From contig NZ_CP007536.1 of the NCBI RefSeq assembly GCF_000698785.1, positions 1,740,001 to 1,772,000 of the forward strand: DNA of 32,000 nucleotides, read 5' to 3'. The stretch is from Nitrososphaera viennensis EN76 (GTDB taxonomy: Archaea; Thermoproteota; Nitrososphaeria; Nitrososphaerales; Nitrososphaeraceae). The notes below the pieces were generated by a model. The model saw only the letters and a program-made list of their open reading frames with translations, had not been told where the DNA came from and searched no databases. Shown piece after piece: positions 10,104-26,664 of this stretch; position 1 is the first letter of the stretch; the number at the start of each line of letters is the position of its first letter. The position numbers and the translations under genes were made by a program.

Positions 10104-11381
10104 GTGAACCATACCGCCGCAACAATCGGCACCACGATTTTCCCGCAGTTTTTCGCGCCCGGAAACGGTCCGACAGATTTCATCGTCCAGGACTTTGCGG
10201 TGGTCATGATAGTCGCCGCCGTCATGATTGCCATCACCTACAAGCTGAAGCAGCCTATGGTAATCGGCTACATACTTGCAGGCATACTCATCGGCCCCTA
10301 TACGCCGCCTTTCAGCCTGGTCAGGGACGCTAGCACCATAAACGTGCTGGCAGAGCTCGGCATAATCATGCTGCTCTTCGTGGTGGGCACGGAATTTCCG
10401 ATGGCAAAGCTGCGGTCGGTGGGGAGGGTGTCGTTCGTGGTTGCAATGGCAGAGACGCTTGGAACGCTCTTTATCGTATTCTTTATCGCGCAGTACCTCG
10501 GCTTTACGTTCTTTGACTCGCTGTTCCTCGGCCTGGCGCTTTCCATCACCAGCACCGTCGTGACCGTGAGGATACTTGAGGAGCTGGGCATGATAAAGGA
10601 CAAGTCGTCCATCTTGCTGCTCGGCATTTCCGTGGTGGAGGACATCCTGGCCATCAGCATCCTTGCCGTCCTGCAATCGCTTGCGGCAAACGGCGGCCAG
10701 GTGGAGCCCCTGACTCTGGCAGTTTCAATCGGCATAGTGGCCGCGTTCATCGGAGGCGTCCTGTTCCTGGGGTCGCGCTTTTTCCCCAAAATAATCGACA
10801 GGGCCGGCAAGACAAACGACTATGCGCTCCTTCTCATAGTCATCCTCGGCCTCGCGTTCGGGCTTTCTTTTATCGCAAACGGCATAGGGCTGTCGGTGGC
10901 GACCGGCGCCTTTCTTGCCGGCGTGCTTGTGGCCGAGTCCAATAGCGCGGCAGTCGCAAGGATACTGACCCTGCCGCTGCGCGACATGTTTGCCGCCATA
11001 TTCTTTGTCTCCATCGGCGCGCTCATGGACATCCGGGTCCTGCCGGACTACATACTTCCTGCCGCGATACTGATATTCACCTCGTTTGGGGCCAAGTTCC
11101 TCATCGTGACTGGCATACTGACTCGTGCAAAATACGACAGCGTCACCGCGCTCCGGACAGGGTTTGGCATGTCTGCTGCAAAGGGAGAGCTGTCGCTCGT
11201 GGTGGTCAAGGGAGGGCAGGACGTAGGGGCCATCAGTCCGACCATACTGCCACTGCTTGGCGTCGTGACCATCGTGACTACGTTTCTGGCGCCCTATATC
11301 ATCAGGTTCGGGAGCAGGATCAGGATGCAGAGCAGCGGCGGCGATGATGATAACAAGCCCGCGGAAGAAAAGGCCGGCTAA
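10104..11381 (+). CDS. cation:proton antiporter, CPA2 (Kef/NapA-type Na+/H+ or K+/H+ exchanger), no KTN domain
   Basis: 425 aa with about 12 TM helices. Blocks QPMVIGYILAGILIGP, LLFVVGTEF and AFLAGVLVAES are characteristic of the Na_H_exchanger family. Confidence 0.85.
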   Translation: MNHTAATIGTTIFPQFFAPGNGPTDFIVQDFAVVMIVAAVMIAITYKLKQPMVIGYILAGILIGPYTPPFSLVRDASTINVLAELGIIMLLFVVGTEFPMAKLRSVGRVSFVVAMAETLGTLFIVFFIAQYLGFTFFDSLFLGLALSITSTVVTVRILEELGMIKDKSSILLLGISVVEDILAISILAVLQSLAANGGQVEPLTLAVSIGIVAAFIGGVLFLGSRFFPKIIDRAGKTNDYALLLIVILGLAFGLSFIANGIGLSVATGAFLAGVLVAESNSAAVARILTLPLRDMFAAIFFVSIGALMDIRVLPDYILPAAILIFTSFGAKFLIVTGILTRAKYDSVTALRTGFGMSAAKGELSLVVVKGGQDVGAISPTILPLLGVVTIVTTFLAPYIIRFGSRIRMQSSGGDDDNKPAEEKAG

Positions 11382-12073
11382 CGGAACTTTTTGCGCGCAA
11401 TCATCGCGACCATGGCAGCGCCGGCAAAGGTTGCCGTCCAGTACAGCCACAAATCTGCAACAAAGCCGGAGAGCAGCGCCGGCGCAAGCGACCTTGCCGG
11501 GTTCATCGACGCGCCCGACACGAACGACAGGAACAGTATGTCAAGGCCCACCATGCCGCCGATGGCTACGCCACTGAAACCTTTCAGACCTTTTGTGTAC
11601 ACAACGGCATAGATGATTGCCATCAAGAGCGCGGTGGCAAGGACTTCTACCGCTATTATGAGGGGGAGCGGAAACGAATAGTCGGGCGCGTTTGCCCCCA
11701 AGTTTGCCTCGGTGCCTATCGCAAAGGCGACAAACGCGCTTGCCAGTAGCGCGCCGATTATTTCTGCCGCAAAATACACGGGGAACTGGCGGGGCACAAT
11801 GTGGCCTGTTATCAGAAAGCCAAGCGTCACGGCAGGGTTGAAATGCGCCATCGATATTTTCCCAAAGGCGTACACCATCAGCGCGACCGCGATCGCAGGG
11901 CATATTGCGGCAAAGGGCGTGCCAAGGGTGCTGCCGCCAAGCCTGGCGTCAATCACGACAGAGCCGGTGGCAAGGACGACTACCACAAACGTGCCGGCAA
12001 GCTCGGCAAGGAACCTCTTTCTGTCCGAGGCCAGCCTAGCTGCTGTTGCTACTTTTTTCGAGGTCTCTGACAA
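11378..12073 (-). CDS. MIP-family channel (aquaporin/aquaglyceroporin), likely arsenite/metalloid channel given context
   Basis: 231 aa with two NPA boxes (HFNPAVTLG, MNPARSLAP) and 6 TM helices. Its 5' end overlaps the arsC 3' end by 38 nt. Confidence 0.85.
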   Translation of the reverse strand: MSETSKKVATAARLASDRKRFLAELAGTFVVVVLATGSVVIDARLGGSTLGTPFAAICPAIAVALMVYAFGKISMAHFNPAVTLGFLITGHIVPRQFPVYFAAEIIGALLASAFVAFAIGTEANLGANAPDYSFPLPLIIAVEVLATALLMAIIYAVVYTKGLKGFSGVAIGGMVGLDILFLSFVSGASMNPARSLAPALLSGFVADLWLYWTATFAGAAMVAMIARKKFR

Positions 12074-12467
12074 GCTCTTTTACTCTTCTCTCAATGTCGT
12101 CGCGGATGAGGCGCACCCTTTCAATAGGCTTGCCCTTTGGGTCCTCCACGCCCCAGTCTACAGGGTTGTTCAGGAACAAGAGCGGGCATTCAGACCTGTC
12201 CATGCAGCCCATGTTGACCGCCTTGATAGAGTTGCGTACCATGTCGTCGTCTATCACCTTGCTCTTTTGCCCGCTGATGTCTATTCCTGCCTCCTTCATG
12301 GCCTGCACCGCAAGCGGGTTTATCTCTTGCGCCGGCCGCGTCCCGGCGCTTATCGCCCTGTAGCCTTTTGGCGCGTATTTCCGGAAAAAGCCCTCTGCCA
12401 TCTGGCTCCTGCCGGCGTTTTCGACGCACACGAAAAGCACCGTCTTTTCCTGCTGCTGTTTTGTCAT
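12036..12467 (-). CDS. arsC: arsenate reductase, LMW-PTPase (thioredoxin-coupled) type
   Basis: 143 aa. P-loop VLFVCVENAGRSQMAEG (CxxNxxRS) plus downstream Cys pair GCMDRSECP. Confidence 0.85.
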   Translation of the reverse strand: MTKQQQEKTVLFVCVENAGRSQMAEGFFRKYAPKGYRAISAGTRPAQEINPLAVQAMKEAGIDISGQKSKVIDDDMVRNSIKAVNMGCMDRSECPLLFLNNPVDWGVEDPKGKPIERVRLIRDDIERRVKELVRDLEKSSNSS

Positions 12468-13229
12468 TTATTTCACGGCCCTTACCACTATGCTTGACAG
12501 CTTGCGCCCGTCCATTTCAATGTAGGGTCGCTCCTCAAGCACGCTTACGCCCTCAAAGCCTGCCTTCTTGATGGCGGCGATATAGTTTTCCTTTGTGAGC
12601 GCGCCGTCGATGCAGCTGCACCATTTTTCCGGGTCAGCCTGCGTGACTTCCCTGTCTGCGGCGATGTCAGAGATGACCATCCTGCCACCTTTTTTCAGCA
12701 CCCTGTGGATCTCGGAAAATGTCTTTGCCTTGTCAAAAGTCAGGTTGATGACGCAGTTGCTTATCACGGCATCGGCGCTTGCGTCGCCAAGCGGTATCCG
12801 CTCCTCGATGTCGCCCTTTCTGAACTCGACGTTTGCATAGCCGTGCTCGCTTGCGTTTTTCCTCGCCTTTGCGAGCATCTCGTCGGTCATGTCGATGCCG
12901 ATCGCCCTGCCGCCTGCGCCGACGCGCCTGGCAGACAGGAACACGTCAATGCCGGCCCCGGAGCCAAGGTCCACGACGGTCTCGCCTTCCTTCAGCCCCG
13001 CAAAATTCAATGGCGCGCCGCATCCTGCGCCCAGCATGGCTGCTTCAGGCACAGACGCCAGGTCTTCTCTGCTGTATCCGATGGCGCCTGCGCTCTCTAT
13101 TGGTGATGATGATGACATCGTGCCGCACCCGCATTCGCCGGGCCCGCAGCATGAATCCTGCAACAGTGCGACCCTGCCGTACTTTTCTCTCACTTTTTCC
13201 TTGATGTTCCCGTTGTTGTCGTTGTTCAT
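12468..13229 (-). CDS. arsM: arsenite S-adenosylmethionine methyltransferase
   Basis: 253 aa. KEKVREKYG..., Cys-rich N-terminus (SCCGPGECGCG), SAM motif VVDLGSGAGID, conserved Cys in ISNCVINL and WCSCIDGA. The stop abuts the arsC start. Confidence 0.85.
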   Translation of the reverse strand: MNNDNNGNIKEKVREKYGRVALLQDSCCGPGECGCGTMSSSSPIESAGAIGYSREDLASVPEAAMLGAGCGAPLNFAGLKEGETVVDLGSGAGIDVFLSARRVGAGGRAIGIDMTDEMLAKARKNASEHGYANVEFRKGDIEERIPLGDASADAVISNCVINLTFDKAKTFSEIHRVLKKGGRMVISDIAADREVTQADPEKWCSCIDGALTKENYIAAIKKAGFEGVSVLEERPYIEMDGRKLSSIVVRAVK

Positions 13230-13247
13230 GCCAATGCTTTACTAGAG

Positions 13248-13262
13248 AAACTATTTAAGTTG
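13248..13262. promoter_or_regulatory. shared AT-rich TATA-like element (AAACTATTTAAGTTG) in the 64-bp divergent arsM/hxlR-type intergenic region
   Basis: About 26 nt from ATG 13229 (-; leaderless-type spacing) and about 39 nt from ATG 13294 (+). Confidence 0.35.
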
Positions 13263-13293
13263 TAAAGAGGAAACAAATACAGCTGGTGTAAAG

Positions 13294-13674
13294 ATGGAAA
13301 CCAAGAATAAACTGCCGATGGTCAACGGCTGCGGCTTTGACGGCTATGACGCCACCTCTCTCATGTCTGAAACCGCGAGGCTGCGCAGGATAATAACGAA
13401 AAGGGGCACGCTTGAGATCCTGATACCGCTGTGCTGCACCACCGAGCCGGTGCGCTACAAACAGTTCCGGGGCGCCATAAAGGGAGTAAGCAGCAAGACA
13501 CTTGCAATCCGGCTAAAAGAGCTGGAAAAAGGCGGCATACTGGAGCGCAAGGCGTACAGCGAGATCCCGCCCCGCGTCGAGTACAGGCTGACGCCAAAGG
13601 GTCAGGAGCTCGTCGAGTCTGTCATCAACCTGCTCCAGTGGATGAAAAAGTGGTCGTCATCATCAGGCGCATAG
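13294..13674 (+). CDS. HxlR-family winged-helix transcriptional regulator
   Basis: 126 aa. RYKQFRGAIKGVSSKTLAIRLKELEKGGILERKAYSEIPPRVEYRLTPKGQEL is a textbook HxlR wHTH. It has exactly three Cys (C13, C47, C48). Confidence 0.85.
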   Translation: METKNKLPMVNGCGFDGYDATSLMSETARLRRIITKRGTLEILIPLCCTTEPVRYKQFRGAIKGVSSKTLAIRLKELEKGGILERKAYSEIPPRVEYRLTPKGQELVESVINLLQWMKKWSSSSGA

Positions 13675-14178
13675 CGACGACACCGGCGGCGCAAACCCCG
13701 GCATGTCGTACGAAGAGGAGAGCATCTCCATCATGCGCTCCTGTTCTTTGCGCCTCCTCTGCTCAAGCATCAGGCCGGCGATGTTCTTTGACCGCTCAAG
13801 GTGGTCAAAGACGATGGTCGTGCAGCAGTCCATGCCTGCAAGGAGCCTGCCGATGACCGAAACGATCCTGCGCATGAGCGAGTCCCTTATCTGCGTCGTG
13901 CCGCGGAGCTGGTCCACTGTTGTTTTCGAGTCGCTCCTCACCTCGACTACGATGCGCCTCTTGCTTGAGCGCCTTAGGGCCCTGCGTATGTGCGCAAGGT
14001 TGTCCCTGAGCGCGAAATAGATGGCCAAAAGCTCCATCCGCTGCACACCAAACCGCTCGTTCTTTGGCGAGGGGCGGACGGGCCTTATCGTACCCTTCTC
14101 GGTATGATGGTTGTACCAGGCTATGTAGCCGGACGGGGAGGCGTCAGCATCTATGACAACGATTGAGTGCTGCCTCAC
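13663..14178 (-). CDS. RNase H (type 1)-like domain protein with a C-terminal extension
   Basis: 171 aa with a GTG start. DEDD-like pattern: VVIDADAS, MELLAIYFAL, VRSDSKTTV, FDHLERSKNIAGLML. A TATA-like CATATATC lies about 30 nt upstream. The 3' end overlaps the hxlR-type gene by 12 nt (convergent). Confidence 0.5.
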   Translation of the reverse strand: MRQHSIVVIDADASPSGYIAWYNHHTEKGTIRPVRPSPKNERFGVQRMELLAIYFALRDNLAHIRRALRRSSKRRIVVEVRSDSKTTVDQLRGTTQIRDSLMRRIVSVIGRLLAGMDCCTTIVFDHLERSKNIAGLMLEQRRRKEQERMMEMLSSSYDMPGFAPPVSSLCA

Positions 14179-14659: not shown

Positions 14660-15493
14660 CTAGCTTACCATCCTTGTAAATTTTTCATAAAGCGCGTCCC
14701 TTTCGTCCTTTTCCTTCTGCAAAATAGCCTCTGCGCCCTTGGCGTTCTGAAGGTATTCTATTGTGATGTCGCAGTCGCGTATCAGTCCGAGCGTGCCCTG
14801 CAGCTCCTTGAGCATTGCCATGGCATTCCTCCTGCTTCTGCTGTTGCTGCCGCTGCTGCCGCCGGCGACCCTTGCTATGGCCCTGCCGTACTTTTTCCTG
14901 CGGCCGGCAGGAAGGATCTCAAGCACGTAGCGCAGCTTTTTCATGTCCTTGCGCAGCTCGTGCAGCTCCTCCTTTTTGCTGCTGTCGCCTACTACCACCG
15001 GCAGGCGCGCTTCAATCGCGAAAACCAGCCTCCCGGCGACCTTGTCCATCCTCCCGGCAAGCTTGTCTCCGTCAATGTTCTTTGCGCTTGCAGCCGCCGG
15101 CAGCATCATCATCTTTTTCTTTTCCACCGAGCGCGCCAGCGCAAGGGCGCGGCCAAGCGCGGCTTTTCTCCTGCCTGCAATCGCGTCCACGACAAACGGC
15201 CCACCCCCGAGGGCTGTGATCCTTGCCCTGACTATGTCAAGGTCGCGCACGCGGCTGTTGGCCCGGAAAAACGCCTTGCACGCGTCCGCCTGCTTCCTGT
15301 TCCTTTTGCGCTCTTTTTTTGGCAGGAGCGAAAACGCCGCCTCAAGGCGCCGGAGGGACGTCCGCATGCTGTGCACGTTCTCCTCGTCGCCGGGGTCGCG
15401 CAGGTACGCGGCAAGCCTCTTTTTCACGCGCACTCCGCTTGTTTCAAAGTTTTTCGCAAATTGCGCCCCGTCTGGTGTCATCATCAGCATCAT
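14660..15493 (-). CDS. CHAD-domain protein (polyphosphate-associated helical domain)
   Basis: 277 aa, helical and basic. Contains the paired CHAD blocks NVHSMRTSLRRLEAAFSLL and ELHELRKDMKKLRYVLEIL. Confidence 0.8.
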   Translation of the reverse strand: MMLMMTPDGAQFAKNFETSGVRVKKRLAAYLRDPGDEENVHSMRTSLRRLEAAFSLLPKKERKRNRKQADACKAFFRANSRVRDLDIVRARITALGGGPFVVDAIAGRRKAALGRALALARSVEKKKMMMLPAAASAKNIDGDKLAGRMDKVAGRLVFAIEARLPVVVGDSSKKEELHELRKDMKKLRYVLEILPAGRRKKYGRAIARVAGGSSGSNSRSRRNAMAMLKELQGTLGLIRDCDITIEYLQNAKGAEAILQKEKDERDALYEKFTRMVS

Positions 15494-15495: not shown

Positions 15496-16254
15496 CTAAA
15501 GCGCCGCCAACCTGCCTGCGCGCGCCGATTCCAAAAAGGCGTCGATGCGCTTTTGCAGGTCGGCGTTTGTCTCCGGTATAGACCTGTTGCCGTCTATTAT
15601 CACGAGGTTGTAGCGCTTTTGCATCCTGCGGAACTCTTTGGCGATCATGGTCTGGTACTTTATGAAAGACTCGAACATGTCGTCAGAAAGCCCCATGTCG
15701 GCGCCAGACTCGTAGTAGTCGAGGTACGCGTTCTTTTGAAAGACGCGGTGGACCAGCTCCTCCGGCCTGACATCGAGGTAGAACACCAGGTCTGGCACTA
15801 TTGCAAAGGAGAACAGGTTGTGCGACCAGCGCCTGCTGATGCCCCTTACCGCTTCCCTTGCAAGCAGCGTGTAGATATAGCGATCGGCAAGCACGATGTA
15901 CCCTGCGCGCAGCGCCGGGATTATCTTGTTTTCAAGCTGGTCCGCAAAATCGGCCGCGTAAAAGAGCGAGAGCGTCTTTCTGCCGGCAAAATTCCTCTTG
16001 GCCTCCAGTATCCCCTCGCTTATCAGCTCCGACCGCTTCAAGCCCGTGTTGAGCACGGCGTGCCCCGCGGCTTCAAGCTTGGCCGTTATCAGCCCAATCT
16101 GGGTGCTCCTGCCGGACGCGTCGGGCCCCTCTATCACTATGAGCCTGCCCTTGATCTCGGTATCGTCGATGTAGGGTATGCCGTGGCCGTAGAACTGGAT
16201 GGTCCTTCCTGCTGCCTGGCTTGCTGCTGCCGCCATCCTGCTGCTGCGCCTCAC
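15496..16254 (-). CDS. thymidylate-kinase-like P-loop protein, paralog B (degenerate Walker A GPDASGRST); candidate polyphosphate kinase subunit
   Basis: 252 aa. dTMPK-fold blocks LIVIEGPDASGRSTQ, LFYAADFADQ, LRAGYIVLADRYIYT. 4-nt overlap with the upstream paralog and a 2-nt gap to the CHAD gene. Confidence 0.8.
   Translation of the reverse strand: MRRSSRMAAAASQAAGRTIQFYGHGIPYIDDTEIKGRLIVIEGPDASGRSTQIGLITAKLEAAGHAVLNTGLKRSELISEGILEAKRNFAGRKTLSLFYAADFADQLENKIIPALRAGYIVLADRYIYTLLAREAVRGISRRWSHNLFSFAIVPDLVFYLDVRPEELVHRVFQKNAYLDYYESGADMGLSDDMFESFIKYQTMIAKEFRRMQKRYNLVIIDGNRSIPETNADLQKRIDAFLESARAGRLAAL
15868..15911. repeat. 44-nt segment identical to 16647..16690 (within the paralogous dTMPK-like genes)
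   Basis: cgtgtagatatagcgatcggcaagcacgatgtaccctgcgcgca occurs in both genes. On the minus strand it encodes the shared LRAGYIVLADRYIYT block. Confidence 0.9.
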
Positions 16255-16973
16255 TCTGCCGGCACCTCCTTCTCCTGCTGCTGTTGCTTGCCCCGGAAAA
16301 ACTGCCTTGGCAAAAGCTCCATCACCTTCTGGCGCATGGCCTTCTGCTGCTCCTCGATGTCTGCCGTGCCGTCGATTACGACAAAGTTCTCCGGCCCGAC
16401 CATCGAGTCGTACTGCTCCACTATCCTTCCCTGGAATATGCGGTAGCTTTCATAGGGGTCGTTGCTCAGGTTCAGGTCCATGCCCGCCTCGTAGTACTTT
16501 AGTTTCGGCCTGTTTTTCACTATCCTGTCAAACGCCACGTCCACCGGCACTCTGAAGTAGAACGAGATGTCAGGCTTGACTGCAAAGTCGTACATGTGGC
16601 GCACCCAGCGCGGGTGGCAGCCCCGCACGACGTCGCGGGCAAACGCCGTGTAGATATAGCGATCGGCAAGCACGATGTACCCTGCGCGCAAGAGCGGCAG
16701 TATGTGGCGCTCGTACCGGTCGGCAAAGTCGGTGGCGTGCAGGAGGCTGAACGTTATTGGCGTCAGCAGGGCCTTTTTCTTGCCCTTGGACGTTATCTCC
16801 TTCACCGTCTCTGACGAGTTCCACTCGGTAAAGAACACCGGCAGCCCCATGTACCTGAACCACTTTTCAAGCAGGCGTATCTGCGTGGACTTGCCGGACC
16901 CGTCCACGCCCTCTACTATTATCAGCCTGCCCGGTATTATTTCGCGATTTTTAACATACGACATCATCACCAT
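16251..16973 (-). CDS. thymidylate-kinase-like P-loop protein, paralog A (canonical Walker A GVDGSGKST); candidate polyphosphate kinase subunit
   Basis: 240 aa. LIIVEGVDGSGKSTQ, LLHATDFADR, LRAGYIVLADRYIYT. The start lies 1 nt after the ppx stop. Confidence 0.8.
   Translation of the reverse strand: MVMMSYVKNREIIPGRLIIVEGVDGSGKSTQIRLLEKWFRYMGLPVFFTEWNSSETVKEITSKGKKKALLTPITFSLLHATDFADRYERHILPLLRAGYIVLADRYIYTAFARDVVRGCHPRWVRHMYDFAVKPDISFYFRVPVDVAFDRIVKNRPKLKYYEAGMDLNLSNDPYESYRIFQGRIVEQYDSMVGPENFVVIDGTADIEEQQKAMRQKVMELLPRQFFRGKQQQQEKEVPAE
16647..16690. repeat. 44-nt segment identical to 15868..15911
   Basis: See the partner repeat. Flanking codons are diverged. Confidence 0.9.
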
Positions 16974-16974: not shown

Positions 16975-18624
16975 TCATACGATCACCTTGACCTCCTGAT
17001 GCTTTTTTGATGCAGACCCGTTTGCTGCAGAAACAACAACCTGGCAGCTTGCAGCGACGTCAAACGCGCGCTCGAAATTGCGCAGCGCGCTTGCAAGGAG
17101 CGTTGCCGGGACGGCCGGCTGCCTGCTGCCGCTACTCTGCATGATCCTGATTGCGACTTTTTTGTTGTTGTTGCCGCTTATTGACAGGCGCGCCGTCGCC
17201 TTTGTCCTTTCAAGGATCTCCGAGAGCACTATGCACGCCGAGATCTTCTCGATCGACTTTTTGTTCTGCGGCTCCAGTATCGACCCGTACCTTGAAAACA
17301 GCCAGTCCACTGTCTTTTCCTTCTTGGTGTGGACTATGGCAAGCGCAAGGATCAGCTGCTCGCGGTGCGTGAGAAACGCGTTGTCCTCGTCCATTATCAG
17401 GTGGAAGAGGTTGCTCAGGTTGGTGACGTTGGGAAGGGTGGCCATCTCTTTGAGCGCGTGGCCCAGTATCGCCCGCTCTTTTTCGCGCAGCAGGCCGGCA
17501 GACACTAGCGGCTTGACCAGCGAAAACGCGTACTGCGGGAGCACCTCCTGCTGGCACGCAAACGTGACGTACGCCTTGGCCCGCTCGGCAGTCATCACGT
17601 TATTGCTGTAGAACGCCTTTGGGTCGCGCAAAAACACCGACAGTATCCCTTCGCGCAGGCCCCTTGCGCTGACAACCACCTTGTCAAAGTCCAGCTTTTG
17701 CATGAGAAGCGAGATTACCGCCGCGCCGGCGACAATAGTGTCGACCCTGTTGCTCCCGATTGCCTTTATCTTCTCAAGATCGCCCCTGTCCATCTTGTAC
17801 AGCTCGCTTGCTATGGCAGAGACGGAAGAATGGTCCATGCGGTAGTTGTGGATCTTGTCAAGCTCATAGCCGGCAAGCTCTTGCTCATAGCGCGCAATCG
17901 CCCGCAGCGTGCCGCCGACGCCAACGAGCGTGGTGTCGACGCTTATGCCAAGCTCCTTTCTGTCCGGCAGCGTGTCCAGTATGCGCTCCTCCATCTTGCC
18001 GTACGCCTTCTTTGAAAACGAGCCGTCATCATCGTCATCTTTGCCATCGTCATTATCTTTGTTGTTATTATTATTGCCGTACATCTTTGACAGGCGCAGC
18101 GCGCCAAGCGGGTACGACTCGACCTTCTTTATGCCGTAATTCTCGGTGTAGACCAGCTCCAGGCTCCCGCCCCCGAGGTCGAAAAAGAGCGACGTGGGTA
18201 TGCACGTCGATTCCAGCGCGCCGACATACGAGTAGAACCCCTCTTCCTCGCCGGAGAGCACCTTGAACTGAAAGCCGGTCTCCTCGCGGACCCGCTTAAG
18301 AAAAGAGTCGCGGTTTGCAGCGTCCCTCACCGCGCTTGTCGCGACCGGCAGCACGTGCCGTATGGAATCGAAATTGATGACGTCGCGGAACAGCTTCAAT
18401 GCCTCGATGGTGCGCTGCACAGGCTCGCCGGAAAGATATCCTCCTCTGCCGAGCCCCTCTCCCAGCTTGACCTTGACCCCTTCCTGCCTGTACGCCTTGA
18501 AGGTGCCGTCGCGCTTGACGTCATAGTTGACCATCTTGACCGAGTTAAAGCCCAGGTCGACGACAGAGACTTTCATTATTATTATGCTACCATCCTCTTC
18601 ATGTGCCGCGGCGTGAGAAGCCAC
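16975..18624 (-). CDS. ppx: exopolyphosphatase / Ppx-GppA family phosphatase
   Basis: 549-aa ORF. Actin-like ATPase motifs VVDLGFNSVKM, ATSAVRDAAN, LSGEEEGFYSYVG, FFDLGGGSLEL, plus a C-terminal helical domain. The likely true start is M17 (MKVSVVDLG, 18576), which removes the 43-nt overlap with sixA. Confidence 0.85.
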   Translation of the reverse strand: MASHAAAHEEDGSIIIMKVSVVDLGFNSVKMVNYDVKRDGTFKAYRQEGVKVKLGEGLGRGGYLSGEPVQRTIEALKLFRDVINFDSIRHVLPVATSAVRDAANRDSFLKRVREETGFQFKVLSGEEEGFYSYVGALESTCIPTSLFFDLGGGSLELVYTENYGIKKVESYPLGALRLSKMYGNNNNNKDNDDGKDDDDDGSFSKKAYGKMEERILDTLPDRKELGISVDTTLVGVGGTLRAIARYEQELAGYELDKIHNYRMDHSSVSAIASELYKMDRGDLEKIKAIGSNRVDTIVAGAAVISLLMQKLDFDKVVVSARGLREGILSVFLRDPKAFYSNNVMTAERAKAYVTFACQQEVLPQYAFSLVKPLVSAGLLREKERAILGHALKEMATLPNVTNLSNLFHLIMDEDNAFLTHREQLILALAIVHTKKEKTVDWLFSRYGSILEPQNKKSIEKISACIVLSEILERTKATARLSISGNNNKKVAIRIMQSSGSRQPAVPATLLASALRNFERAFDVAASCQVVVSAANGSASKKHQEVKVIV

Positions 18625-19118
18625 CGCAGCTCTCCTTTTGCCCTTGGCCGAAGCGACGTCACGCCTACCTTGGCAAGGCCGGCCTTTTTCAGCACGATGC
18701 GCCCGTCGCCCTGGCCATCAAACGCCAGGTCGCGAACCAGGCTGCTGAGGTACGGCTCGTGGCCCACCACCATCACGGAATCCTCGGGCTTGAACCGGGC
18801 AAGCTTGGAGTAGAGCGCAACCCTGCTTCCCTCCGGCTTTAATTCGTCCCACAGCTCGAATTTCCCTTTCTTGATCTTTAATTTCTTGACGACAATCTCG
18901 GCGGTCTGGCGCGCCCTTGCAAGCGGGCTTGCGGCCACAAAGTCGAGCTTTACCCCGAGATCGGCAAGTGCGCCGGCTATCTCCATTACCTCCTCCTCGC
19001 CCGTGACCGTGAGCGGGCGCTCGGAATCCTTGCTCCCGGCGGCAAGCCTCTTGCCTGCCTCGCCGTGACGCAGGATGTAAAGATCCACGGGAGCTGGTAA
19101 AGCCGGCGCGTATATCAA
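18582..19118 (-). CDS. sixA: SixA-type phosphohistidine phosphatase (histidine phosphatase superfamily)
   Basis: 178-aa ORF. LYILRHGEAG catalytic motif, SPLARARQTAEI, VVGHEP. The probable true start is GTG at 19088 (V11), because TATA-like boxes lie at 19108..19135. Confidence 0.75.
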   Translation of the reverse strand: MIYAPALPAPVDLYILRHGEAGKRLAAGSKDSERPLTVTGEEEVMEIAGALADLGVKLDFVAASPLARARQTAEIVVKKLKIKKGKFELWDELKPEGSRVALYSKLARFKPEDSVMVVGHEPYLSSLVRDLAFDGQGDGRIVLKKAGLAKVGVTSLRPRAKGELRWLLTPRHMKRMVA

Positions 19119-19167: not shown

Positions 19168-20628
19168 TTACGAGCCATCTACCTTCAGTAGAAGCAGCTG
19201 CCCGCCTTCCTTGATGCTGTGCGCCTGAACGTCCACAAGCCAGCTTCCATTGCCAAAGAACTCCGAGACGTCCAGTATGCCGGAGGATTCCCAGTCGCCG
19301 TGCTTTGCCGCGCGATCCGCGTTCTGGTTCACGTGGGCCACGACCTTCATGTCGGCGTGGCCGGCGTCTATCGAGTCGAGGCTGACCCTGATTATCTTGG
19401 CGTTGTTGGCAATGTCGTACGGGCTTGACGGGTCCGAGCGGGTCACGCCGATGCGGTCCTCCTGTATCATCAGGCTTTTTTCGCTCGTGTCAATGTTGTC
19501 CGGGTTTGACATGCCGAGGCTGAGGCTTGCGTTGTAGCCCGGCGCAGCGGGGTCGTTGCCGTCCATTATCACCTGGAAGGATGCCTTGGTCGGGTTCCTG
19601 GGGTCGGTAAACGCGAACTTGTACATCCTGCCCCTCTCCCAGCTCTGGCCGTTTGCGCCCGGCGGGATCGCGGCCCCGTTTTCGTCCTTGTCGTTTCCGG
19701 TGTCAGCCATGTACATGACGTTTTCATGCCCGTCGCGCTTGTCCATGGCCGCGTCCTCGGGCCTTATGAAGGAGAAAGCGCCGGCCGCGTGCGCCGCGGC
19801 ATGGAGTGAAGCAGCGTCCTGGGTCTTGTAGTCCCAGCTCACAGGCACGAACCTTCCGGCCACCCGGCCTGTCGAGAAGTAAATGTCGTCCCAGCTGTTG
19901 GTGGTAGTGTTTTCAAGCGCACTGAAGACGTAAAGCTGGCCTTTGCCCTTCATGAAATCTTTGGGCGAGTCTGCCACGTACATGTAGACCTCGGACTCGG
20001 TCGCCTCGCCGTCCTCCGTCGTGATCATGACGGTCTTGCCCGCGGTCTTTTCAAAGTACGGGACGTGGATGGTGTTTTCGTGCGACAGCCTGCCAAGCCA
20101 CGGCATCTCTGTGACCTTGCCGGTCCTGGCGTCGACGCCTACAACCAGGCCGTCGCTGACTTCCTCGTTTGCAAAGTAGACAGGGTGCGTAAAGCCATGG
20201 CCGTCCACAAGCGAGGAGGAGCAGAACCTTTCGTACTGCTGCGAGCCGTCTATGACAAGCTGCTGCTCTATCACCTCGCCGTCCTTGTTGAGGACGAGCT
20301 CGGACACCTTTGCAAAGCCCCCGTGGTTTGTCCCGTTGTTGAGCTCGTGGCTGATAAATACGTCAAGCTTTTTGTCTACCTTGATGACGTACGCGCCGAT
20401 GCCGTCTGGGATGTTGGCAAAGGTATAGTCGCCTATCTTGTCGCCGCTGGTGATTATGGCCTTGACCGAGGCGCTTGCCGGGTCTGCCACCGTGACGTAC
20501 GGGGCCGCGCCCGTCAAAAAGCCACCTGAAGCCGCGCTTGCGCCTGCAATGGTCGCTGCGGGTGACAATAAAAGAACCCCAACCAGCGCCACGGCGGAAA
20601 CGATTGCGTAAAAGTTTGCAACCTTCAT
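19168..20628 (-). CDS. secreted PhoX-like (DUF839, beta-propeller) phosphatase
   Basis: 486 aa. N-terminal signal/anchor (AIVSAVALVGVLLLSPA). Blocks IPDGIGAY, ERFCSSSL, FANEEV, GRLSHENT, FIRPEDAA, MSNPDNID, MIQEDR resemble the PhoX/DUF839 family. Phosphate-island context. Confidence 0.6.
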   Translation of the reverse strand: MKVANFYAIVSAVALVGVLLLSPAATIAGASAASGGFLTGAAPYVTVADPASASVKAIITSGDKIGDYTFANIPDGIGAYVIKVDKKLDVFISHELNNGTNHGGFAKVSELVLNKDGEVIEQQLVIDGSQQYERFCSSSLVDGHGFTHPVYFANEEVSDGLVVGVDARTGKVTEMPWLGRLSHENTIHVPYFEKTAGKTVMITTEDGEATESEVYMYVADSPKDFMKGKGQLYVFSALENTTTNSWDDIYFSTGRVAGRFVPVSWDYKTQDAASLHAAAHAAGAFSFIRPEDAAMDKRDGHENVMYMADTGNDKDENGAAIPPGANGQSWERGRMYKFAFTDPRNPTKASFQVIMDGNDPAAPGYNASLSLGMSNPDNIDTSEKSLMIQEDRIGVTRSDPSSPYDIANNAKIIRVSLDSIDAGHADMKVVAHVNQNADRAAKHGDWESSGILDVSEFFGNGSWLVDVQAHSIKEGGQLLLLKVDGS

Positions 20629-21329: not shown

Positions 21330-22850
21330 ATGCACGGCTTTGAAAAAACAACGATTATTGCCGGATTTTTCGCCGCCGTCCTGGCTGCTATGCCCCTGCT
21401 GTCGGTTTACGCGCAGGGCCAGATAGTGATAGACGGCGCCGGCGCAACATTTCCGTTCCCGCTGATAGACACGTGGCGGGTGCAGTACCAGAAGGTAGAC
21501 CCAAGCATCAGCCTGAACTACCAGTCAATAGGAAGCGGCGGAGGGGTAAAGCAGTTCACCGAAAGGACGGTGGACTTTGGGGCGTCTGACGCGCCTCTCA
21601 CGGAAAGCGAGAGGAGCGCGCTGCCCGGGCCGGCAGTCCACATCCCTGAAACAATAGGCTCCGTGGTCGCTGCGTACAACGTGCCGGGCGTCGAGAAGGG
21701 CCTGAAACTAACCGGCCCCGTCCTTGCAGACATTTACCTTGGAAAGATAAAGAAGTGGAATGACCCGGCGATCGCCTCTGAAAACCAGGGCGTAAACCTC
21801 CCAGACCGCGACATCGTAGTGGTGCGCAGGGCAGACGGCTCCGGCACGACGTTCGTCTGGACAAGCTACCTAGCGACGGTGAGCCCGGAATGGAAGGACC
21901 AGGTGGGCGCAGGCAAGTCCGTCGAGTGGCCCGCAGGTGTTGGCGCTCCCGGAAACGAGGGCGTTTCAAACACGATAGGCCAGACGCCCTACTCGCTTGG
22001 GTACGTGGAGCTCTCGTACGTGCTCACGACGGGGATGGACTATGCCAGCATAAAGAACAAGGCAGGCAACTTTGTCGAGCCGACCCTTGCGTCGACAAAG
22101 GCGGCCGTGGAAGCGGCAGCTACGTCTCTCCCGGCAGGCGACGCCTCGTGGGCCAACGTTTCGCTCCTTGACGCGCCGGGCGACGACTCGTACCCGATTG
22201 CAAGCTTTTCCTACCTGCTGCTGTACAAGGAGATGAGCACGACCCCCAAGGTGAACAGCATGCAAAAGGCCCAGGCGATTGTTGACTTTATCGCGTGGGC
22301 AATCAGCCCCGAAGGGCAAAAACACGCCGAGGAGCTTTCGTACGTGCCCCTGCCTGACAACGTCGTTCAGGCGAACATGCAGACCCTCGCCTCGCTGACG
22401 TACAACGGCCAGCCTGTAATGCAGCAGCAATCCGGGCAACAATCCTCCACCGTGTCCGCCACGTTTGAAGGCAAGAGCTACCCTGTCAAGGTCAGCTCGG
22501 CAACCGCCAAGGTCACAAACATCGCGATAAACGCGGGCCAGTCAATCGACGTCGGGTTTGACAAGCCCGGCGACGTGGAGCTGACGCTGCCAAAGGCCAT
22601 GATAGACGGCATACAGGTCGTCTCGGCGGGAGGCCAGGAGGTAAGCTTCCAGCAGGTGGGCTCGACGGCTACGGACACCACGATAAAATTCACGGTGCCT
22701 GACGGCAGCACGGGTCCGGTCAGCATCAAGGGGGCGTCGGTCGTTCCCGAGTTTGGCGTGGTTGCAGCGCTTGTGCTTGCGGCATCGCTTGTGGCAGTGA
22801 TAGGCGTCGCTCGCTTCAAGGGGCAGGCCTTTGGGCTGGGCAGGCTCTAA
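21330..22850 (+). CDS. pstS: phosphate ABC transporter substrate-binding protein with C-terminal beta-rich extension and PEFG-type sorting/anchor signal
   Basis: 506 aa. GAGATFPFPLIDTWRVQYQK, NYQSIGSGGGVKQF, DFGASDAPL, RRADGSGTTFVWT. The C-terminus is VVPEFG + hydrophobic helix + RFKG (22746..22850). Confidence 0.9.
   Translation: MHGFEKTTIIAGFFAAVLAAMPLLSVYAQGQIVIDGAGATFPFPLIDTWRVQYQKVDPSISLNYQSIGSGGGVKQFTERTVDFGASDAPLTESERSALPGPAVHIPETIGSVVAAYNVPGVEKGLKLTGPVLADIYLGKIKKWNDPAIASENQGVNLPDRDIVVVRRADGSGTTFVWTSYLATVSPEWKDQVGAGKSVEWPAGVGAPGNEGVSNTIGQTPYSLGYVELSYVLTTGMDYASIKNKAGNFVEPTLASTKAAVEAAATSLPAGDASWANVSLLDAPGDDSYPIASFSYLLLYKEMSTTPKVNSMQKAQAIVDFIAWAISPEGQKHAEELSYVPLPDNVVQANMQTLASLTYNGQPVMQQQSGQQSSTVSATFEGKSYPVKVSSATAKVTNIAINAGQSIDVGFDKPGDVELTLPKAMIDGIQVVSAGGQEVSFQQVGSTATDTTIKFTVPDGSTGPVSIKGASVVPEFGVVAALVLAASLVAVIGVARFKGQAFGLGRL
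21499..21592. repeat. 94-nt tract with 1 mismatch to 23210..23303 (pstS paralogs). Further identical tracts: 21631..21680 = 23342..23391 (50 nt) and 22187..22242 = 23901..23956 (56 nt)
   Basis: Direct base-by-base comparison of the two pstS genes. The flanks carry many substitutions. Confidence 0.85.
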
Positions 22851-22854
22851 GAAG

Positions 22855-22886
22855 CCTCTCTCCTCTCCCTCTCTCTTTTTCTTACC
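22855..22886 (+). terminator. polypyrimidine/oligo-T tract after pstS copy 1
   Basis: cctctctcctctccctctctctttttcttacc begins 5 nt after TAA 22848..22850. Confidence 0.35.
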
Positions 22887-22901
22887 TGAAATTTACGCAG
22901 T

Positions 22902-22920
22902 ATTCTTTACGCTAAAGAAT
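22902..22920. promoter_or_regulatory. perfect 8-3-8 palindrome ATTCTTTA-CGC-TAAAGAAT upstream of pstS copy 2
   Basis: Read directly. It sits between the pstS1 terminator-like tract and TATA-like boxes (22921..22937, 22966..22977) of pstS2. Confidence 0.35.
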
Positions 22921-23010
22921 CTCTATAGCAATATACGAAAGCTATGTTCCTATGTATTGCATGTGAAGTATATACGCTAACCATTAATCCACACTCACTA
23001 ACTCACGCAC

Positions 23011-24555
23011 ATGCACGGCTTTGACGGCATCAGACGTACGGTGTTGGTAGGCCTTTTTGCCGGCATGCTTTTGGCGTCATTTTTGCCAGTGGCGATGTCG
23101 ACAAGTGCCTACGCGCAATCAAGCAGCAGCCAGGTAACGATCAACGGAGCAGGTGCAACATTTCCGTTCCCGCTGATAGACACCTGGAGAGTTGAATACA
23201 AAAAAGTGAACCCAAGCATCAGCCTGAACTACCAGTCAATAGGAAGCGGCGGAGGGATAAAGCAGTTCACCGAAAGGACGGTGGACTTTGGGGCGTCTGA
23301 CGCCCCGCTGACGGCGGCCCAGACAAAGGCCCTGCCTGGAGCGGCAGTCCACATCCCTGAAACAATAGGCTCCGTGGTCGCTGCGTACAACATCCCCGGC
23401 TTTAAGCAAAAGGGCCTGCTTCTCACCGGCCCCATCCTTGCCGACATTTACCTCGGCAAGATAACAAGGTGGGACGACCCGGCGATCAAGGCGCTCAACC
23501 CCAAGGTCCCGCTCCCAAGCAAGGACATACTCGTGGTCAGGAGGTCCGACGGCTCTGGCACGACGTTTGTCTGGACAGACTACCTCTCCTCTGTGAGTCC
23601 GGAATGGGCGCAGAAGGTTGGCAAGGGAACCGCGGTCCAGTGGCCAAAGGGCAGAGGAGCTCCAGGCAACGAGGGTGTTGCGTCGACGGTCAGGGGAGCC
23701 CCGTACTCGCTTGGCTACGTAGAGCTTGCGTACGCGCTGACGGCAAACATGAACTATGCTTTCATCCAGAACAAAGAGGGCAACTTTATCGAGCCGAGCC
23801 TTGACTCGGCCAAGGCGGCCGTAGAAGCGTCCGCAACGGCACTGCCGGCAGGCGACGCTGCATGGACGAACGTGTCGCTTGTCAACGCACCCGGCGACAG
23901 CTCGTACCCGATTGCAAGCTTTTCCTACCTGCTGCTGTACAAGGAGATGAGCACGAGCACCAAGATAGACAGCGAGGCCAAGGCCAAGGCGATTGTTGAC
24001 TTTATCGCGTGGGCAATCAGCCCTGCGGGACAGCAGCACGCGCAAAAGCTGTCGTACGTGCCCCTGCCTGACAACGTGGTAAGCCTGAACCAGAAAACGC
24101 TTGCCTCGCTGACGTACAAGGGCAAGGCGCTGTACACGATGCCGGGCTCAAGCTCTTCCTCGACCGCCACTTCGACAACGACAGCAACAACAGAAGAGCC
24201 GGCCAGCAAGACCTACACAGCCAAGCTATCCGTGACAGCCTCCATGAGCAAGACCACCAAGATGATGAATCTGGTGCTCAGAAACCCGTCTAACAGCGAC
24301 GCACAGGTATACCAGCTCCAGGTGACCCTTGACGGCGGCGCAAACGTCATGTCCGCCAAGGGACCGGCCGGCTGGGCAGTTGACTATGACGGAGACACTG
24401 TGATCTTTACGACCGACGACAAGCCCATAACCAAGGGCAAGCTCGGCCTGTTCAAGATCACTGCCAGCGCGACTGCCAGCAGCATCGACTGGGAAAGCGA
24501 CGACGCGGACGGCAACGTCATCAACGCCAAGACGACAACAGTCAGCGTAAGGTAA
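23011..24555 (+). CDS. pstS: phosphate ABC transporter substrate-binding protein, paralog 2, with a different C-terminal beta-sandwich-like extension and no PEFG tail
   Basis: 514 aa with the same PstS motifs as copy 1. After a Ser/Thr linker (SSSSTATSTTTATTEE), the C-terminal ~120 aa (KTYTAKLSVTASMSK...TTTVSVR) are unrelated to the copy 1 tail. Confidence 0.9.
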   Translation: MHGFDGIRRTVLVGLFAGMLLASFLPVAMSTSAYAQSSSSQVTINGAGATFPFPLIDTWRVEYKKVNPSISLNYQSIGSGGGIKQFTERTVDFGASDAPLTAAQTKALPGAAVHIPETIGSVVAAYNIPGFKQKGLLLTGPILADIYLGKITRWDDPAIKALNPKVPLPSKDILVVRRSDGSGTTFVWTDYLSSVSPEWAQKVGKGTAVQWPKGRGAPGNEGVASTVRGAPYSLGYVELAYALTANMNYAFIQNKEGNFIEPSLDSAKAAVEASATALPAGDAAWTNVSLVNAPGDSSYPIASFSYLLLYKEMSTSTKIDSEAKAKAIVDFIAWAISPAGQQHAQKLSYVPLPDNVVSLNQKTLASLTYKGKALYTMPGSSSSSTATSTTTATTEEPASKTYTAKLSVTASMSKTTKMMNLVLRNPSNSDAQVYQLQVTLDGGANVMSAKGPAGWAVDYDGDTVIFTTDDKPITKGKLGLFKITASATASSIDWESDDADGNVINAKTTTVSVR

Positions 24556-24566
24556 GGTAATGCTGA

Positions 24567-24604
24567 CCTCCCCCTCTCCTTTTCTCTTTTCTTTTTCTCT
24601 CTCT
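24567..24604 (+). terminator. polypyrimidine/oligo-T tract after pstS copy 2
   Basis: cctccccctctccttttctcttttctttttctctctct begins 12 nt after TAA 24553..24555. Confidence 0.35.
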
Positions 24605-24635
24605 ATATAGATCACCTTCAACTACAGTTTTTCCG

Positions 24636-24649
24636 TTGACAACCGTCAA
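24636..24649. promoter_or_regulatory. 5-4-5 palindrome TTGAC-AACC-GTCAA about 30 nt downstream of a TATA box (TCTATATAG, 24602..24610), upstream of pstC
   Basis: Read directly. Its position relative to the TATA box is where archaeal repressors commonly bind. Confidence 0.3.
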
Positions 24650-24682
24650 ATACGCTCCGGCCTTACCTCACGATGACATCGC

Positions 24683-25681
24683 ATGACTTTTTCAGAGTCC
24701 CGGAAGGAGCGCAAGGAGTTCCTCTCGTCGTTCTTTCTGGGGAGAAAGCGCAGGGGCGACGGCCTGTTCAAGTGGGTCGTTATCGGAGGAGCCGCGTACA
24801 CCCTGTGCATGCTCATCCTGGTGGTTTTTTCAGTGGTCGACGGCTCTCTTCCCGTCCTGTTTTACCAGGGCCTCGGGTTCTTTACCGGCACCGACTGGAA
24901 CCCCGTGGAAGGGAGGGAGTCGTACGGAGCGCTCCCCTACGTCATCGGCACGCTCGCAAGCTCGGGCATCGCTATGGCAATAGGCGTGCCCATAAGCCTC
25001 GGCATCGCGGTGTTCATCACCGAGATCGCGCCCTCAAAAGTGGGAACGCCGGTGGGCTTTGTAATAGAGATCCTGGCGGCCATCCCAAGCATCGTCTACG
25101 GCCTGTGGGCGCTCTTTGTCTTTCGGTTCTGGATACTTGACTACATCGAGTTCCCGCTCTACGACACACTTGGCCAGTCAATATCGTTCTTTGGCCCCGG
25201 CCCATTTGGCCTTGACATCTTTACCGCCGGCATCGTCCTTGCCATAATGATAATCCCGATTGTCTCTGCAATCTCGCGCGAAGTTCTAAGAGCAGTGCCA
25301 AACTCGCAGCGCGAAGCCGCGTACAGCCTTGGCGCCACGCGCTGGGAGACCGTCTGGCACTTTATCTTTCCTTACGCCAAGGCCGGAATCCTTGGCGCGG
25401 CCATCCTCGGGCTCGGCAGGGCCATGGGCGAGACCATGCTTGTCACGATGGTGATTGGAAACACCGTGGGGCTGGCGGCAATTCCTGACGGCCTGTTCAG
25501 CCCGGGCCAGACGCTTTCCAGCCTCATAGCCAACGAGTTCAACGAGGCCGCGTCGCCCCTGCACGCTTCTGCGCTCATCGGGCTTGGCGCGACGCTGTTC
25601 ATCCTTACTATGGCCATCAACATAGGCGCGCAGCTGCTCGTGTCAAGGATGGTCAAGGTAGCGCCGGGAGCCAAGGAGTGA
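24683..25681 (+). CDS. pstC: phosphate ABC transporter permease PstC
   Basis: 332 aa with 6 TM helices and the permease loop REAAYSLGATRWETVWHFIFPYAKAGI. Confidence 0.9.
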   Translation: MTFSESRKERKEFLSSFFLGRKRRGDGLFKWVVIGGAAYTLCMLILVVFSVVDGSLPVLFYQGLGFFTGTDWNPVEGRESYGALPYVIGTLASSGIAMAIGVPISLGIAVFITEIAPSKVGTPVGFVIEILAAIPSIVYGLWALFVFRFWILDYIEFPLYDTLGQSISFFGPGPFGLDIFTAGIVLAIMIIPIVSAISREVLRAVPNSQREAAYSLGATRWETVWHFIFPYAKAGILGAAILGLGRAMGETMLVTMVIGNTVGLAAIPDGLFSPGQTLSSLIANEFNEAASPLHASALIGLGATLFILTMAINIGAQLLVSRMVKVAPGAKE

Positions 25682-26595
25682 CGATCATGCAGTCAAGGCA
25701 AGAGCGCAAAAAAATGATCCAGGATGCAGTAGTCAGGACAAACGCCCGGCGCAAGCTCATGGACAAGCTGTTCACCGCAATCACTGTTGCCTGCGTCGCG
25801 GCGGCGATGATCCCGCTTGGAAGCATCCTTGTTGAAGTGGTGAAAAACGGCGTGGGCGCCATAACCGTGGAATTCCTGACGCAGCCGCAGGGCTCCATAA
25901 TAGCGGGCGACGGCGGGATAGCGCCGGCGATACAGGGCACGCTCCTCGTAGTCGCGCTTGCGTCTCTCATCGGCATCCCGGTGGGCGTTCTTGCCGGCAT
26001 CTACCTTTCCGAGTACGCGCAGGACAGCAAGTTTGCCCGCTCGGTGCGGTTCTTCAACAACGTCATGACAGGCCTGCCGTCCATCGTCATCGGCATAGTG
26101 GGGTACATCGTGCTCGTGCTCACGATCGGGTCGTTCAACATCACGGCTGGCGCTGTTGCGCTGTCAATCATCATGATACCCATAGTAGTCGGCGTGACGG
26201 AGGAGACGCTCAAGCTCGTGCCAAACTCTGTCCGCGAGGCCGGCCACTCGCTTGGCATACCAAAGTGGAAGGTGACCATCTTTATCACGCTGATGGCCGC
26301 AAAGAGCGGCGTCCTGACTGGCATCGTCCTTGCAATTGCCAGGATAGCCGGCGAGACTGCACCCCTTATCATGACCATCCTCGGCACGAGCCTGTTCTTC
26401 CAGGGCTTTGCCGGCCCCGTCGACGCTCTCCCGCTCAGGATATGGCGCCTTGCCTCGCTCCCGTACGAGCACGCGCACTCGTTTGGCTGGGGCGCCGCGC
26501 TCATACTGATACTCATAGTGCTCTCGCTTTCTATCGTGCTCAGGTTCGTGGTGTTGAGGCGCACGGGCGCTAAAGCCCCCACCCTCAAGGTCTAA
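25678..26595 (+). CDS. pstA: phosphate ABC transporter permease PstA
   Basis: 305 aa with the loop REAGHSLGIPKWKVTIFITL. 4-nt overlap with pstC. Confidence 0.9.
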   Translation: MTIMQSRQERKKMIQDAVVRTNARRKLMDKLFTAITVACVAAAMIPLGSILVEVVKNGVGAITVEFLTQPQGSIIAGDGGIAPAIQGTLLVVALASLIGIPVGVLAGIYLSEYAQDSKFARSVRFFNNVMTGLPSIVIGIVGYIVLVLTIGSFNITAGAVALSIIMIPIVVGVTEETLKLVPNSVREAGHSLGIPKWKVTIFITLMAAKSGVLTGIVLAIARIAGETAPLIMTILGTSLFFQGFAGPVDALPLRIWRLASLPYEHAHSFGWGAALILILIVLSLSIVLRFVVLRRTGAKAPTLKV

Positions 26596-26664
26596 GGGCT
26601 CTATATTGCGCTACGTGATCTATTTAGGCAATTGATAATTAGTCAAAAGCCAAAATGACCACAA

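Follow-up and report, generated by a model that had tools for sequence, protein, structure and literature searches.

A predicted PPK3-type polyphosphate kinase pair encoded beside the phosphate uptake genes of Nitrososphaera viennensis

A polyphosphate (polyP) kinase made of two thymidylate (dTMP) kinase homologs, PPK3, has been described from the thermoacidophile Sulfolobus acidocaldarius (Hofmann et al., J Biol Chem 2026, PMC12995831). Here we compare with it two adjacent genes, A and B, that lie in a 32,000-nucleotide (nt) stretch of the genome of the ammonia-oxidising archaeon Nitrososphaera viennensis EN76 (contig NZ_CP007536.1, positions 1,740,001 to 1,772,000). We call this whole stretch the window, and all coordinates refer to it. 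In S. acidocaldarius, the catalytic subunit cPPK3 (Saci_2019) has polyP kinase activity, and rPPK3 (Saci_2020), the regulatory one, is inactive alone but stimulates Saci_2019; neither has dTMP kinase activity, which was detected for Saci_0893 (PMC12995831). The complex, SaPPK3, is an alpha2-beta2 tetramer. Its reaction is reversible, with an approximately 50-fold higher specific activity for polyP + ADP -> ATP; polyP was made only with an ATP-recycling system, and the equilibrium ATP/ADP ratio was 3-4 (PMC12995831). The operon consists of SixA (saci_2017), ppx (saci_2018), cPPK3, rPPK3 and CHAD (saci_2021). The main text of that paper puts the inactivity of rPPK3 down to the replaced arginine of its DRX motif and states that the dTMP-binding residues of dTMP kinase (TMPK, Tmk) are not conserved in PPK3. 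It also reports the absence of PPK1 and PPK2 from most PPK3 genomes, states that all PPK3 genomes carry multiple dTMP kinase paralogs, and names the Nitrososphaeraceae as a main carrier, with PPX, SixA, CHAD, PstC and PstS in the neighbourhood. The abstract stresses "few bacteria" and the Nitrososphaeraceae as carriers (PMC12995831).

Three other described systems are close to A and B. STK_15430 of Sulfurisphaera tokodaii has been solved (PDB 2plr, 4nzy, 4rzx and 5h70) and deposited as "dTMP kinase"; it is of the catalytic type only, unlike the two-subunit A/B pair. The nearest complete genome, that of "Ca. Nitrososphaera evergladensis" SR1 (CP007174), is syntenic with the window over some 20 kb around NTE_00049-NTE_00052, the nucleotide identity being about 87%. 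The SixA-Ppx-c-r-CHAD operon and the pst/phoU cluster recur there, the latter with one PstS gene rather than two, and at the protein level B is 95% identical to its SR1 ortholog. GenBank has listed NTE_00051 and NTE_00052 since 2014, with no other annotation than "thymidylate kinase", and the supplement of the 2014 SR1 genome paper lists NTE_00049-00052 as SixA, Ppx and two "thymidylate kinases". The two-domain class II PPK2 type, of which PA3455 of Pseudomonas aeruginosa is an example, likewise combines an active P-loop module with an inactive paralogous oligomerisation module, and its equilibrium likewise favours polyP-dependent nucleotide phosphorylation (PMC12995831). It belongs, however, to another P-loop kinase family, its modules are fused where those of PPK3 are separate subunits, and its substrate is AMP, not ADP.

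Assignment of A and B to the two PPK3 subunits

A first-pass annotation of the window had singled out A and B as paralogs of the dTMP kinase type and as a candidate PPK3, with reference to a polyP kinase of two dTMP kinase homologs encoded beside ppx in S. acidocaldarius; that enzyme is the one of Hofmann et al. Both open reading frames (ORFs) lie where it had placed them. They are 40% identical (E = 5e-53), and both match the Pfam family Thymidylate_kin (PF02223) at E = 1.2e-21 (A) and 6.3e-20 (B). Both translations contain the FADxxE motif (as DFADxxE) and the 15-residue block LRAGYIVLADRYIYT that it had seen in the two of them. Its reading of a common Walker A has to be corrected, since A has GVDGSGKST and the P-loop of B is GPDASGRST, with arginine in place of the invariant lysine. 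A further carries TEWNSS, a basic KGKKK patch and DRY, and B retains DRY and has an N-terminal extension containing FYGHGIPY. Orthologs of A and B occur at 92-95% identity in many Nitrososphaera assemblies and the pair recurs in every related locus with room for it (see below), so that both are real genes and not chance ORFs.

Both subunits have the dTMP kinase-type P-loop fold. A is 53% identical to the solved STK_15430 structures 2plr and 5h70. The same two entries were the best PDB matches of an AlphaFold2 model of B (predicted local distance difference test score [pLDDT], 88.9; target-normalised template modeling score, 0.88-0.93; root mean square deviation, about 2 Å), which was built from a 53-sequence alignment mixing catalytic (c) and regulatory (r) types. 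Canonical TMPKs came next, at only 21-27% identity in the structure-based alignments. A first model of B, from 20 sequences of ≥72% identity, had a pLDDT of 57 and was discarded.

A is 54% identical to the characterised cPPK3, Saci_2019 (E = 1e-80). Among solved structures, both A (E = 3.8e-69) and B (E = 2e-37) match STK_15430 best, and a reverse search with it returned Nitrososphaera A-type proteins as the best matches after those of the Sulfolobales. B is 31% identical to Saci_2020 (E = 1e-35) and scores 113 bits against it, compared with 76 bits for A; B is thus the best partner of Saci_2020 within the window.

We placed the two proteins in a neighbor-joining tree of 63 sequences (222 columns, Kimura distances, 100 bootstraps) with the Tmk of Thermus thermophilus as its one outgroup. 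All catalytic-type sequences were split from all regulatory-type sequences in 83/100 bootstraps. A fell in the c clade and B in the r clade together with Saci_2020 and four other Sulfolobales rPPK3 proteins, the five of which form a long branch inside that clade. In this comparison, which the first-pass annotation had proposed, A and B therefore group with the cPPK3 and rPPK3 of the Sulfolobus pair and apart from the Tmk outgroup.

Signature residues were counted in the columns of one MAFFT alignment, in which 87 sequences are of the catalytic type and 85 of the regulatory type. The P-loop lysine is present in 87/87 catalytic-type sequences and is arginine in 84/85 of the regulatory type, being kept only in Saci_2020. 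The arginine of DRY is likewise invariant in the catalytic type (87/87) and is found in 80/85 of the regulatory type, the exceptions being the five Sulfolobales, which have glycine. The glutamate, tryptophan, asparagine and serine of TEWNSS are each present in 86 or 87 of the 87 catalytic-type sequences and are replaced in the regulatory type. In the basic patch of the catalytic type, one lysine is invariant and the next position is K or R in 84/87. Every residue invariant in the catalytic type is present in A, as are the residues of the ATP site and the K/R residues of the basic patch and lid that would serve polyP. B and Saci_2020 have in common several derived residues that the catalytic type lacks, namely, ADQxEN for ADRYE[RK], YTLxA, and T-G-x-x-[RS]-S for TEWNSS.

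A and B resemble canonical Tmk (TIGR00041/PF02223) in the P-loop kinase fold, the Walker A region, the DRY/DRH motif and the lid, and differ from it at the dTMP site. Relative to T. thermophilus Tmk, TREPGG has become TEWNSS in A and TGLKRS in B, and the arginine of SADR is phenylalanine in both. We take TREPGG and the SADR arginine to be the dTMP-contacting motifs of TMPK structures. Their replacement agrees with the published statement that dTMP-binding residues are not conserved in PPK3 (PMC12995831).

Gene order matches as well. A and B, like the SaPPK3 genes, are adjacent with c before r, and the operon reads SixA-Ppx-c-r-CHAD in both organisms; SixA and CHAD are therefore not the extra partners that the first-pass annotation had thought them to be. 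The Walker A, TEWNSS, basic patch and DRY of A are identical to those of Saci_2019. B departs from Saci_2020 in keeping the DRY arginine (ADGY in Saci_2020) and in having a P-loop arginine where Saci_2020 keeps lysine. The host is a mesophilic ammonia oxidiser rather than a thermoacidophile, Ppx is 549 aa long here versus 411 aa, and CHAD is matched strongly here but weakly in Sulfolobus. SixA-Ppx-c-r is found in all five Sulfolobales loci that we compared (that of S. acidocaldarius, L081, and four others). An ORF of about 210 aa occupies the CHAD position in four of the five, including S. acidocaldarius, and is absent from a metagenome locus (L085); in S. tokodaii, Metallosphaera sedula and another metagenome-assembled genome (MAG) locus (L086), this ORF is unannotated.

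Orthology, signature residues, synteny and fold, all established here for A and B themselves, make it very probable that the two proteins form a PPK3 heteromer catalyzing polyP(n) + ADP <-> polyP(n-1) + ATP, and they bear out the PPK3-type call of the first-pass annotation. Several points weigh against this assignment. In BLASTP, the better match of B is Saci_2019 (137 bits, versus 113 bits for Saci_2020); because BLAST is ambiguous for B, its placement in the regulatory type therefore rests on the tree and the signature residues, and the bootstrap support for the c/r split is not decisive. The replaced DRX arginine given as a feature of rPPK3 (PMC12995831) is not seen in B, which reads ADRY. 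The function is carried over, by analogy, from a thermoacidophile enzyme whose c and r subunits are 54% and 31% identical to A and B, respectively. Finally, SR1 may have a second polyP-dependent kinase, as the supplement of its genome paper lists a "polyphosphate:AMP phosphotransferase", NTE_00470, away from the PPK3 locus, so there may be polyP kinases other than PPK3 here. The first-pass annotation had remarked on the lack of PPK1- and PPK2-like genes, and within the window this holds, no match to the PPK1 or PPK2 Pfam families being found among the 36 distinct window ORFs scanned; given NTE_00470, it does not extend beyond the window. We presume that the activity named for NTE_00470 is of the PPK2 type.

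Separately, A and B share a run of 44 identical nucleotides on the minus strand (about 16646..16689 in A and 15868..15911 in B) over the codons of LRAGYIVLADRYIYT. Outside this block, residues identical in A and B use the same codon in 38/71 cases, so that 15 in a row would have a P value of about 1e-4, and the runs at the same site in related loci are shorter (16-32 nt). This hints at a short gene-conversion tract.

Proposed mechanism and the role of B

By analogy with the Sulfolobus enzyme, from which activity, reaction direction, stoichiometry and the activating role of B are carried over, A would be the catalytic subunit and bind ATP or ADP at its canonical P-loop. Its DRY arginine would position the transferred phosphate, and the polyP chain would most likely lie in a basic cleft of A that includes the KGKKK patch and the Lys/Arg residues of the lid. 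B would be a noncatalytic partner, marked as such by the replaced P-loop lysine, and, like Saci_2020, would activate A, with a B dimer forming the core of an alpha2-beta2 tetramer. If A/B behaves as the Sulfolobus enzyme does, the ATP-forming direction would be strongly favoured and polyP would be made only at a high ATP/ADP ratio. A and B would be cotranscribed with SixA, Ppx and CHAD. Ppx would hydrolyse polyP to inorganic phosphate, SixA and CHAD would act on the same polymer, and Pst and PhoU would supply and sense phosphate. Attachment to polyP granules has been described for CHAD proteins. As the operon adjoins the pst/phoU uptake cluster, the locus is probably a polyP storage and mobilisation module of this soil ammonia-oxidising archaeon.

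A first alternative concerns the role of B. B might be a nucleotide-binding or weakly active second subunit rather than a dead scaffold, acting as an energy-charge sensor or a slow catalyst, in which case the Nitrososphaera and bacterial enzyme would differ from SaPPK3 in how it works. The DRY arginine, lost only in five Sulfolobales, is intact in B, as are, apart from the P-loop substitution, most of the other residues shared with the catalytic type. Its P-loop arginine is strictly conserved and does not drift: GPDASGRST is read in 120/120 of the closest B orthologs, and arginine holds this position across archaea and bacteria, including four of the five Sulfolobales rPPK3 proteins. Such strict conservation argues for selection on the site, and together with the intact DRY it suggests a selected function, for example, nucleotide or polyP binding, rather than decay. 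Lys-to-Arg mutants of P-loop NTPases often still bind nucleotide while transferring phosphate poorly. On the other hand, TEWNSS, an invariant of the catalytic type, is missing from B, and basic residues are fewer in its patch and lid regions. Saci_2020, the one assayed rPPK3, is inactive even though, alone among the r-type sequences, it has the P-loop lysine. We therefore hold this reading of B to be rather unlikely.

A more specific form of it, which we consider doubtful to the same degree, is that the r subunit of Nitrososphaeria and bacteria is a conserved pseudo-kinase that binds ATP or ADP as an allosteric sensor of energy charge and that Sulfolobus rPPK3 is a degenerated special case. 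The loss of the DRY arginine in all five Sulfolobales examined, with the lysine regained in Saci_2020 alone, would then be features of that branch, and the published explanation of why the r subunit is inactive would not apply to most of the family.

Outside the Sulfolobales, r-type subunits are extended at the N terminus (16090..16254 in B) by some 35 residues that include a conserved [FY]YG.GIPY motif. Neither Saci_2020 nor the other Sulfolobales rPPK3 proteins have it.

A second alternative accepts A/B as a PPK3 pair but limits it in vivo to polyP-dependent phosphorylation of ADP, as an emergency energy buffer, with another enzyme making the polyP. The strong ATP-forming bias of SaPPK3 and its need for ATP recycling when making polyP (PMC12995831) speak for it, as does the second polyP-related enzyme that SR1 lists elsewhere, NTE_00470. 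Against this, most PPK3 genomes have neither PPK1 nor PPK2 (PMC12995831). The reaction is also reversible, with an equilibrium ATP/ADP ratio that growing cells should exceed. Enzymes of the polyphosphate:AMP phosphotransferase type, moreover, mainly use polyP and supply no synthase either. We regard this alternative as unlikely.

That A and B are instead genuine thymidylate kinases, or other nucleoside monophosphate kinases, set among phosphate-related genes by chance is highly improbable and already close to refuted: both match PF02223, A exceeds an NCBIfam equivalog cutoff by 1 bit and databases name their orthologs dTMP kinase, but Saci_2019 and Saci_2020 have no dTMP kinase activity whereas Saci_0893 does (PMC12995831), the residues taken to bind dTMP are replaced in both proteins, B has no P-loop lysine, and archaea and many bacterial phyla share the c->r pair with its linkage to Ppx, SixA or pst.

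The database names are readily accounted for. Against the dTMP kinase equivalog model TIGR00041 (cutoff, 83.25 bits), A scores 84.2 and B scores 81.6. PPK3 and Tmk are evidently not told apart by this model, and it is because the scores straddle the cutoff that the orthologs go under "dTMP kinase" or "thymidylate kinase" at NCBI and JGI, a labelling as tmk that the first-pass annotation had predicted. Pipelines thus still mislabel both PPK3 subunits.

Distribution of the pair and relation to published work

We scanned one genome per GTDB species and fetched and classified 80 loci, 32 from Nitrososphaeria and 48 from bacterial MAGs. The 532 tblastn-confirmed genome matches of the scan are not taken as a PPK3 count, since ordinary Tmk also fits one of the search patterns. 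The c-type gene is followed directly by the r-type gene in 79/79 related loci with room for both. Ppx, SixA, CHAD and pst genes often lie nearby, which is the conservation of neighbourhood that the first-pass annotation had wanted to see in a census. The Nitrososphaeria loci come from Nitrososphaera, other Nitrososphaeraceae, and MAGs labelled Nitrosotalea, Nitrosopumilaceae, "Cenarchaeum" and Nitrosocosmicus. The bacterial loci (L033-L080) span about a dozen labelled phyla or classes, including Verrucomicrobiota, Bryobacterales, delta-proteobacteria, Planctomycetota, Omnitrophota, Nitrospiraceae and Chloroflexi-type groups. Judged by these sequences, with at least 48 bacterial MAGs among the predicted carriers, the PPK3 pair is broader than the "few bacteria" and Nitrososphaeraceae of the published abstract. 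In a library of 1.84 billion cluster representatives at 50% identity, B had 168 matches at E ≤ 1e-30.

MAG loci labelled Nitrosopumilales (L010-L027) carry the c->r pair, usually near Ppx, SixA or pst. Among the matches of B in the cluster library, three double-length representatives, P0346 (460 aa), P0419 (471 aa) and P0467 (454 aa), contain two B-matching stretches each; P0346 has a c-type lysine P-loop in its N-terminal part, P0419 and P0467 have an arginine P-loop in the C-terminal half, and all three are probably c-r fusion proteins.

The A/B locus is a correct re-identification, in another Nitrososphaera genome, of a published system. It is already known, because PMC12995831 assigns PPK3 and this neighbourhood to the Nitrososphaeraceae; the first-pass annotation was right to see a thaumarchaeal counterpart of the Sulfolobus pair and wrong to see in it a new extension. 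The two-subunit design, the operon and its presence in the Nitrososphaeraceae were all published in 2026, so that the locus adds a member and not a concept. What goes beyond the main text of that paper is comparative, namely, the wider range of carriers and the lesion of the regulatory subunit. In the sequences aligned here, the near-universal r-type lesion is the P-loop Lys-to-Arg replacement, and loss of the DRX arginine is specific to the Sulfolobales and not family defining. Relative to the main text of PMC12995831, this is a modest new point. For soil ammonia-oxidising archaea, the locus would provide a defined route of polyP/ATP interconversion beside the phosphate uptake genes, which bears on energy and phosphorus buffering in these slow-growing organisms.

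The operon and its surroundings

SixA, Ppx, A, B and CHAD form an almost gapless five-gene array on the minus strand, which we read as one tightly packed operon (Table 1). The neighbourhood expected of PPK3, with Ppx, SixA, CHAD and Pst, is thus present around A and B. The gaps are as the first-pass annotation had given them, 1 nt from the Ppx stop to A and 2 nt from the B stop to CHAD. The overlap of A and B is indeed 4 nt, as it had reported, but reads GTGA and not ATGA, B starting with GTG. A 4-nt [AG]TGA overlap recurs in related Nitrososphaera loci (L001-L009) and in the SR1 locus (L082) and is therefore a conserved feature.

SixA scores 98.2 bits against the NCBIfam model TIGR00249 (sixA; cutoff, 74.5) and occupies the position of saci_2017. 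Ppx matches the exopolyphosphatase model TIGR03706 at E = 3.6e-74 with 249.8 bits, which is below the 307-bit cutoff of that model. It is listed as its longest ORF, with a GTG start, and in this form overlaps SixA; the true start may be a methionine 16 codons downstream. CHAD occupies the position of saci_2021, whose own CHAD match is weak (E = 1.7e-4).

Table 1. Features of the window, with coordinates, strand and basis of the call
Feature	Position	Strand	Basis
SixA-type phosphohistidine phosphatase, operon gene 1	18582..19118	-	Pfam His_Phos_1, E = 1.5e-13
Ppx/GppA exopolyphosphatase	16975..18624	-	Pfam Ppx-GppA, E = 8.1e-48
A, cPPK3 ortholog, 240 aa, ATG start	16251..16973	-	ORF and homology
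B, rPPK3 ortholog, 252 aa, GTG start	15496..16254	-	ORF and homology
GTGA overlap of A stop codon and B start codon	16251..16254	-	Sequence
CHAD-domain protein, last operon gene	14660..15493	-	Pfam CHAD, E = 2.5e-20
171-aa ORF	13663..14178	-	
486-aa ORF	19168..20628	-	
PstS	21330..22850	+	Pfam
PstS (second gene)	23011..24555	+	Pfam
PstC	24683..25681	+	Pfam
PstA	25678..26595	+	Pfam
PstB	26665..27486	+	Pfam
PhoU	27539..28204	+	Pfam
AbrB/MazE-PhoU	28304..29395	+	Pfam
MIP channel	11378..12073		Library match
ArsC-like low-molecular-weight phosphatase	12036..12467		Library match
Arsenite methyltransferase ArsM	12468..13229		NF008823, 284 bits
HxlR regulator	13294..13674	+	Library match
TiaS	2937..4259		Homology

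A divergent pstSSCAB-phoU cluster adjoins the operon on the plus strand (21330..29395), and the arrangement is found likewise in SR1 and many related loci. The Pst and PhoU neighbours named in the first-pass annotation were recovered by Pfam. Its PhoX was not; the sole candidate is the 486-aa ORF, for which the label is unsupported because no credible match was found in Pfam (down to E = 1), NCBIfam or the PDB sequences. This ORF lies directly upstream of SixA, has a hydrophobic, signal-like N terminus, and is absent from the syntenic region of SR1.

A TiaS gene at 2937..4259 is a mark of an archaeal host. The 171-aa ORF, downstream of CHAD, has no family match and is kept at the same position in five Nitrososphaera loci (L001-L003, L005 and L006; 178-237 bits). 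An arsenic-resistance set (11378..13674) lies just downstream of the operon and is conserved in SR1.

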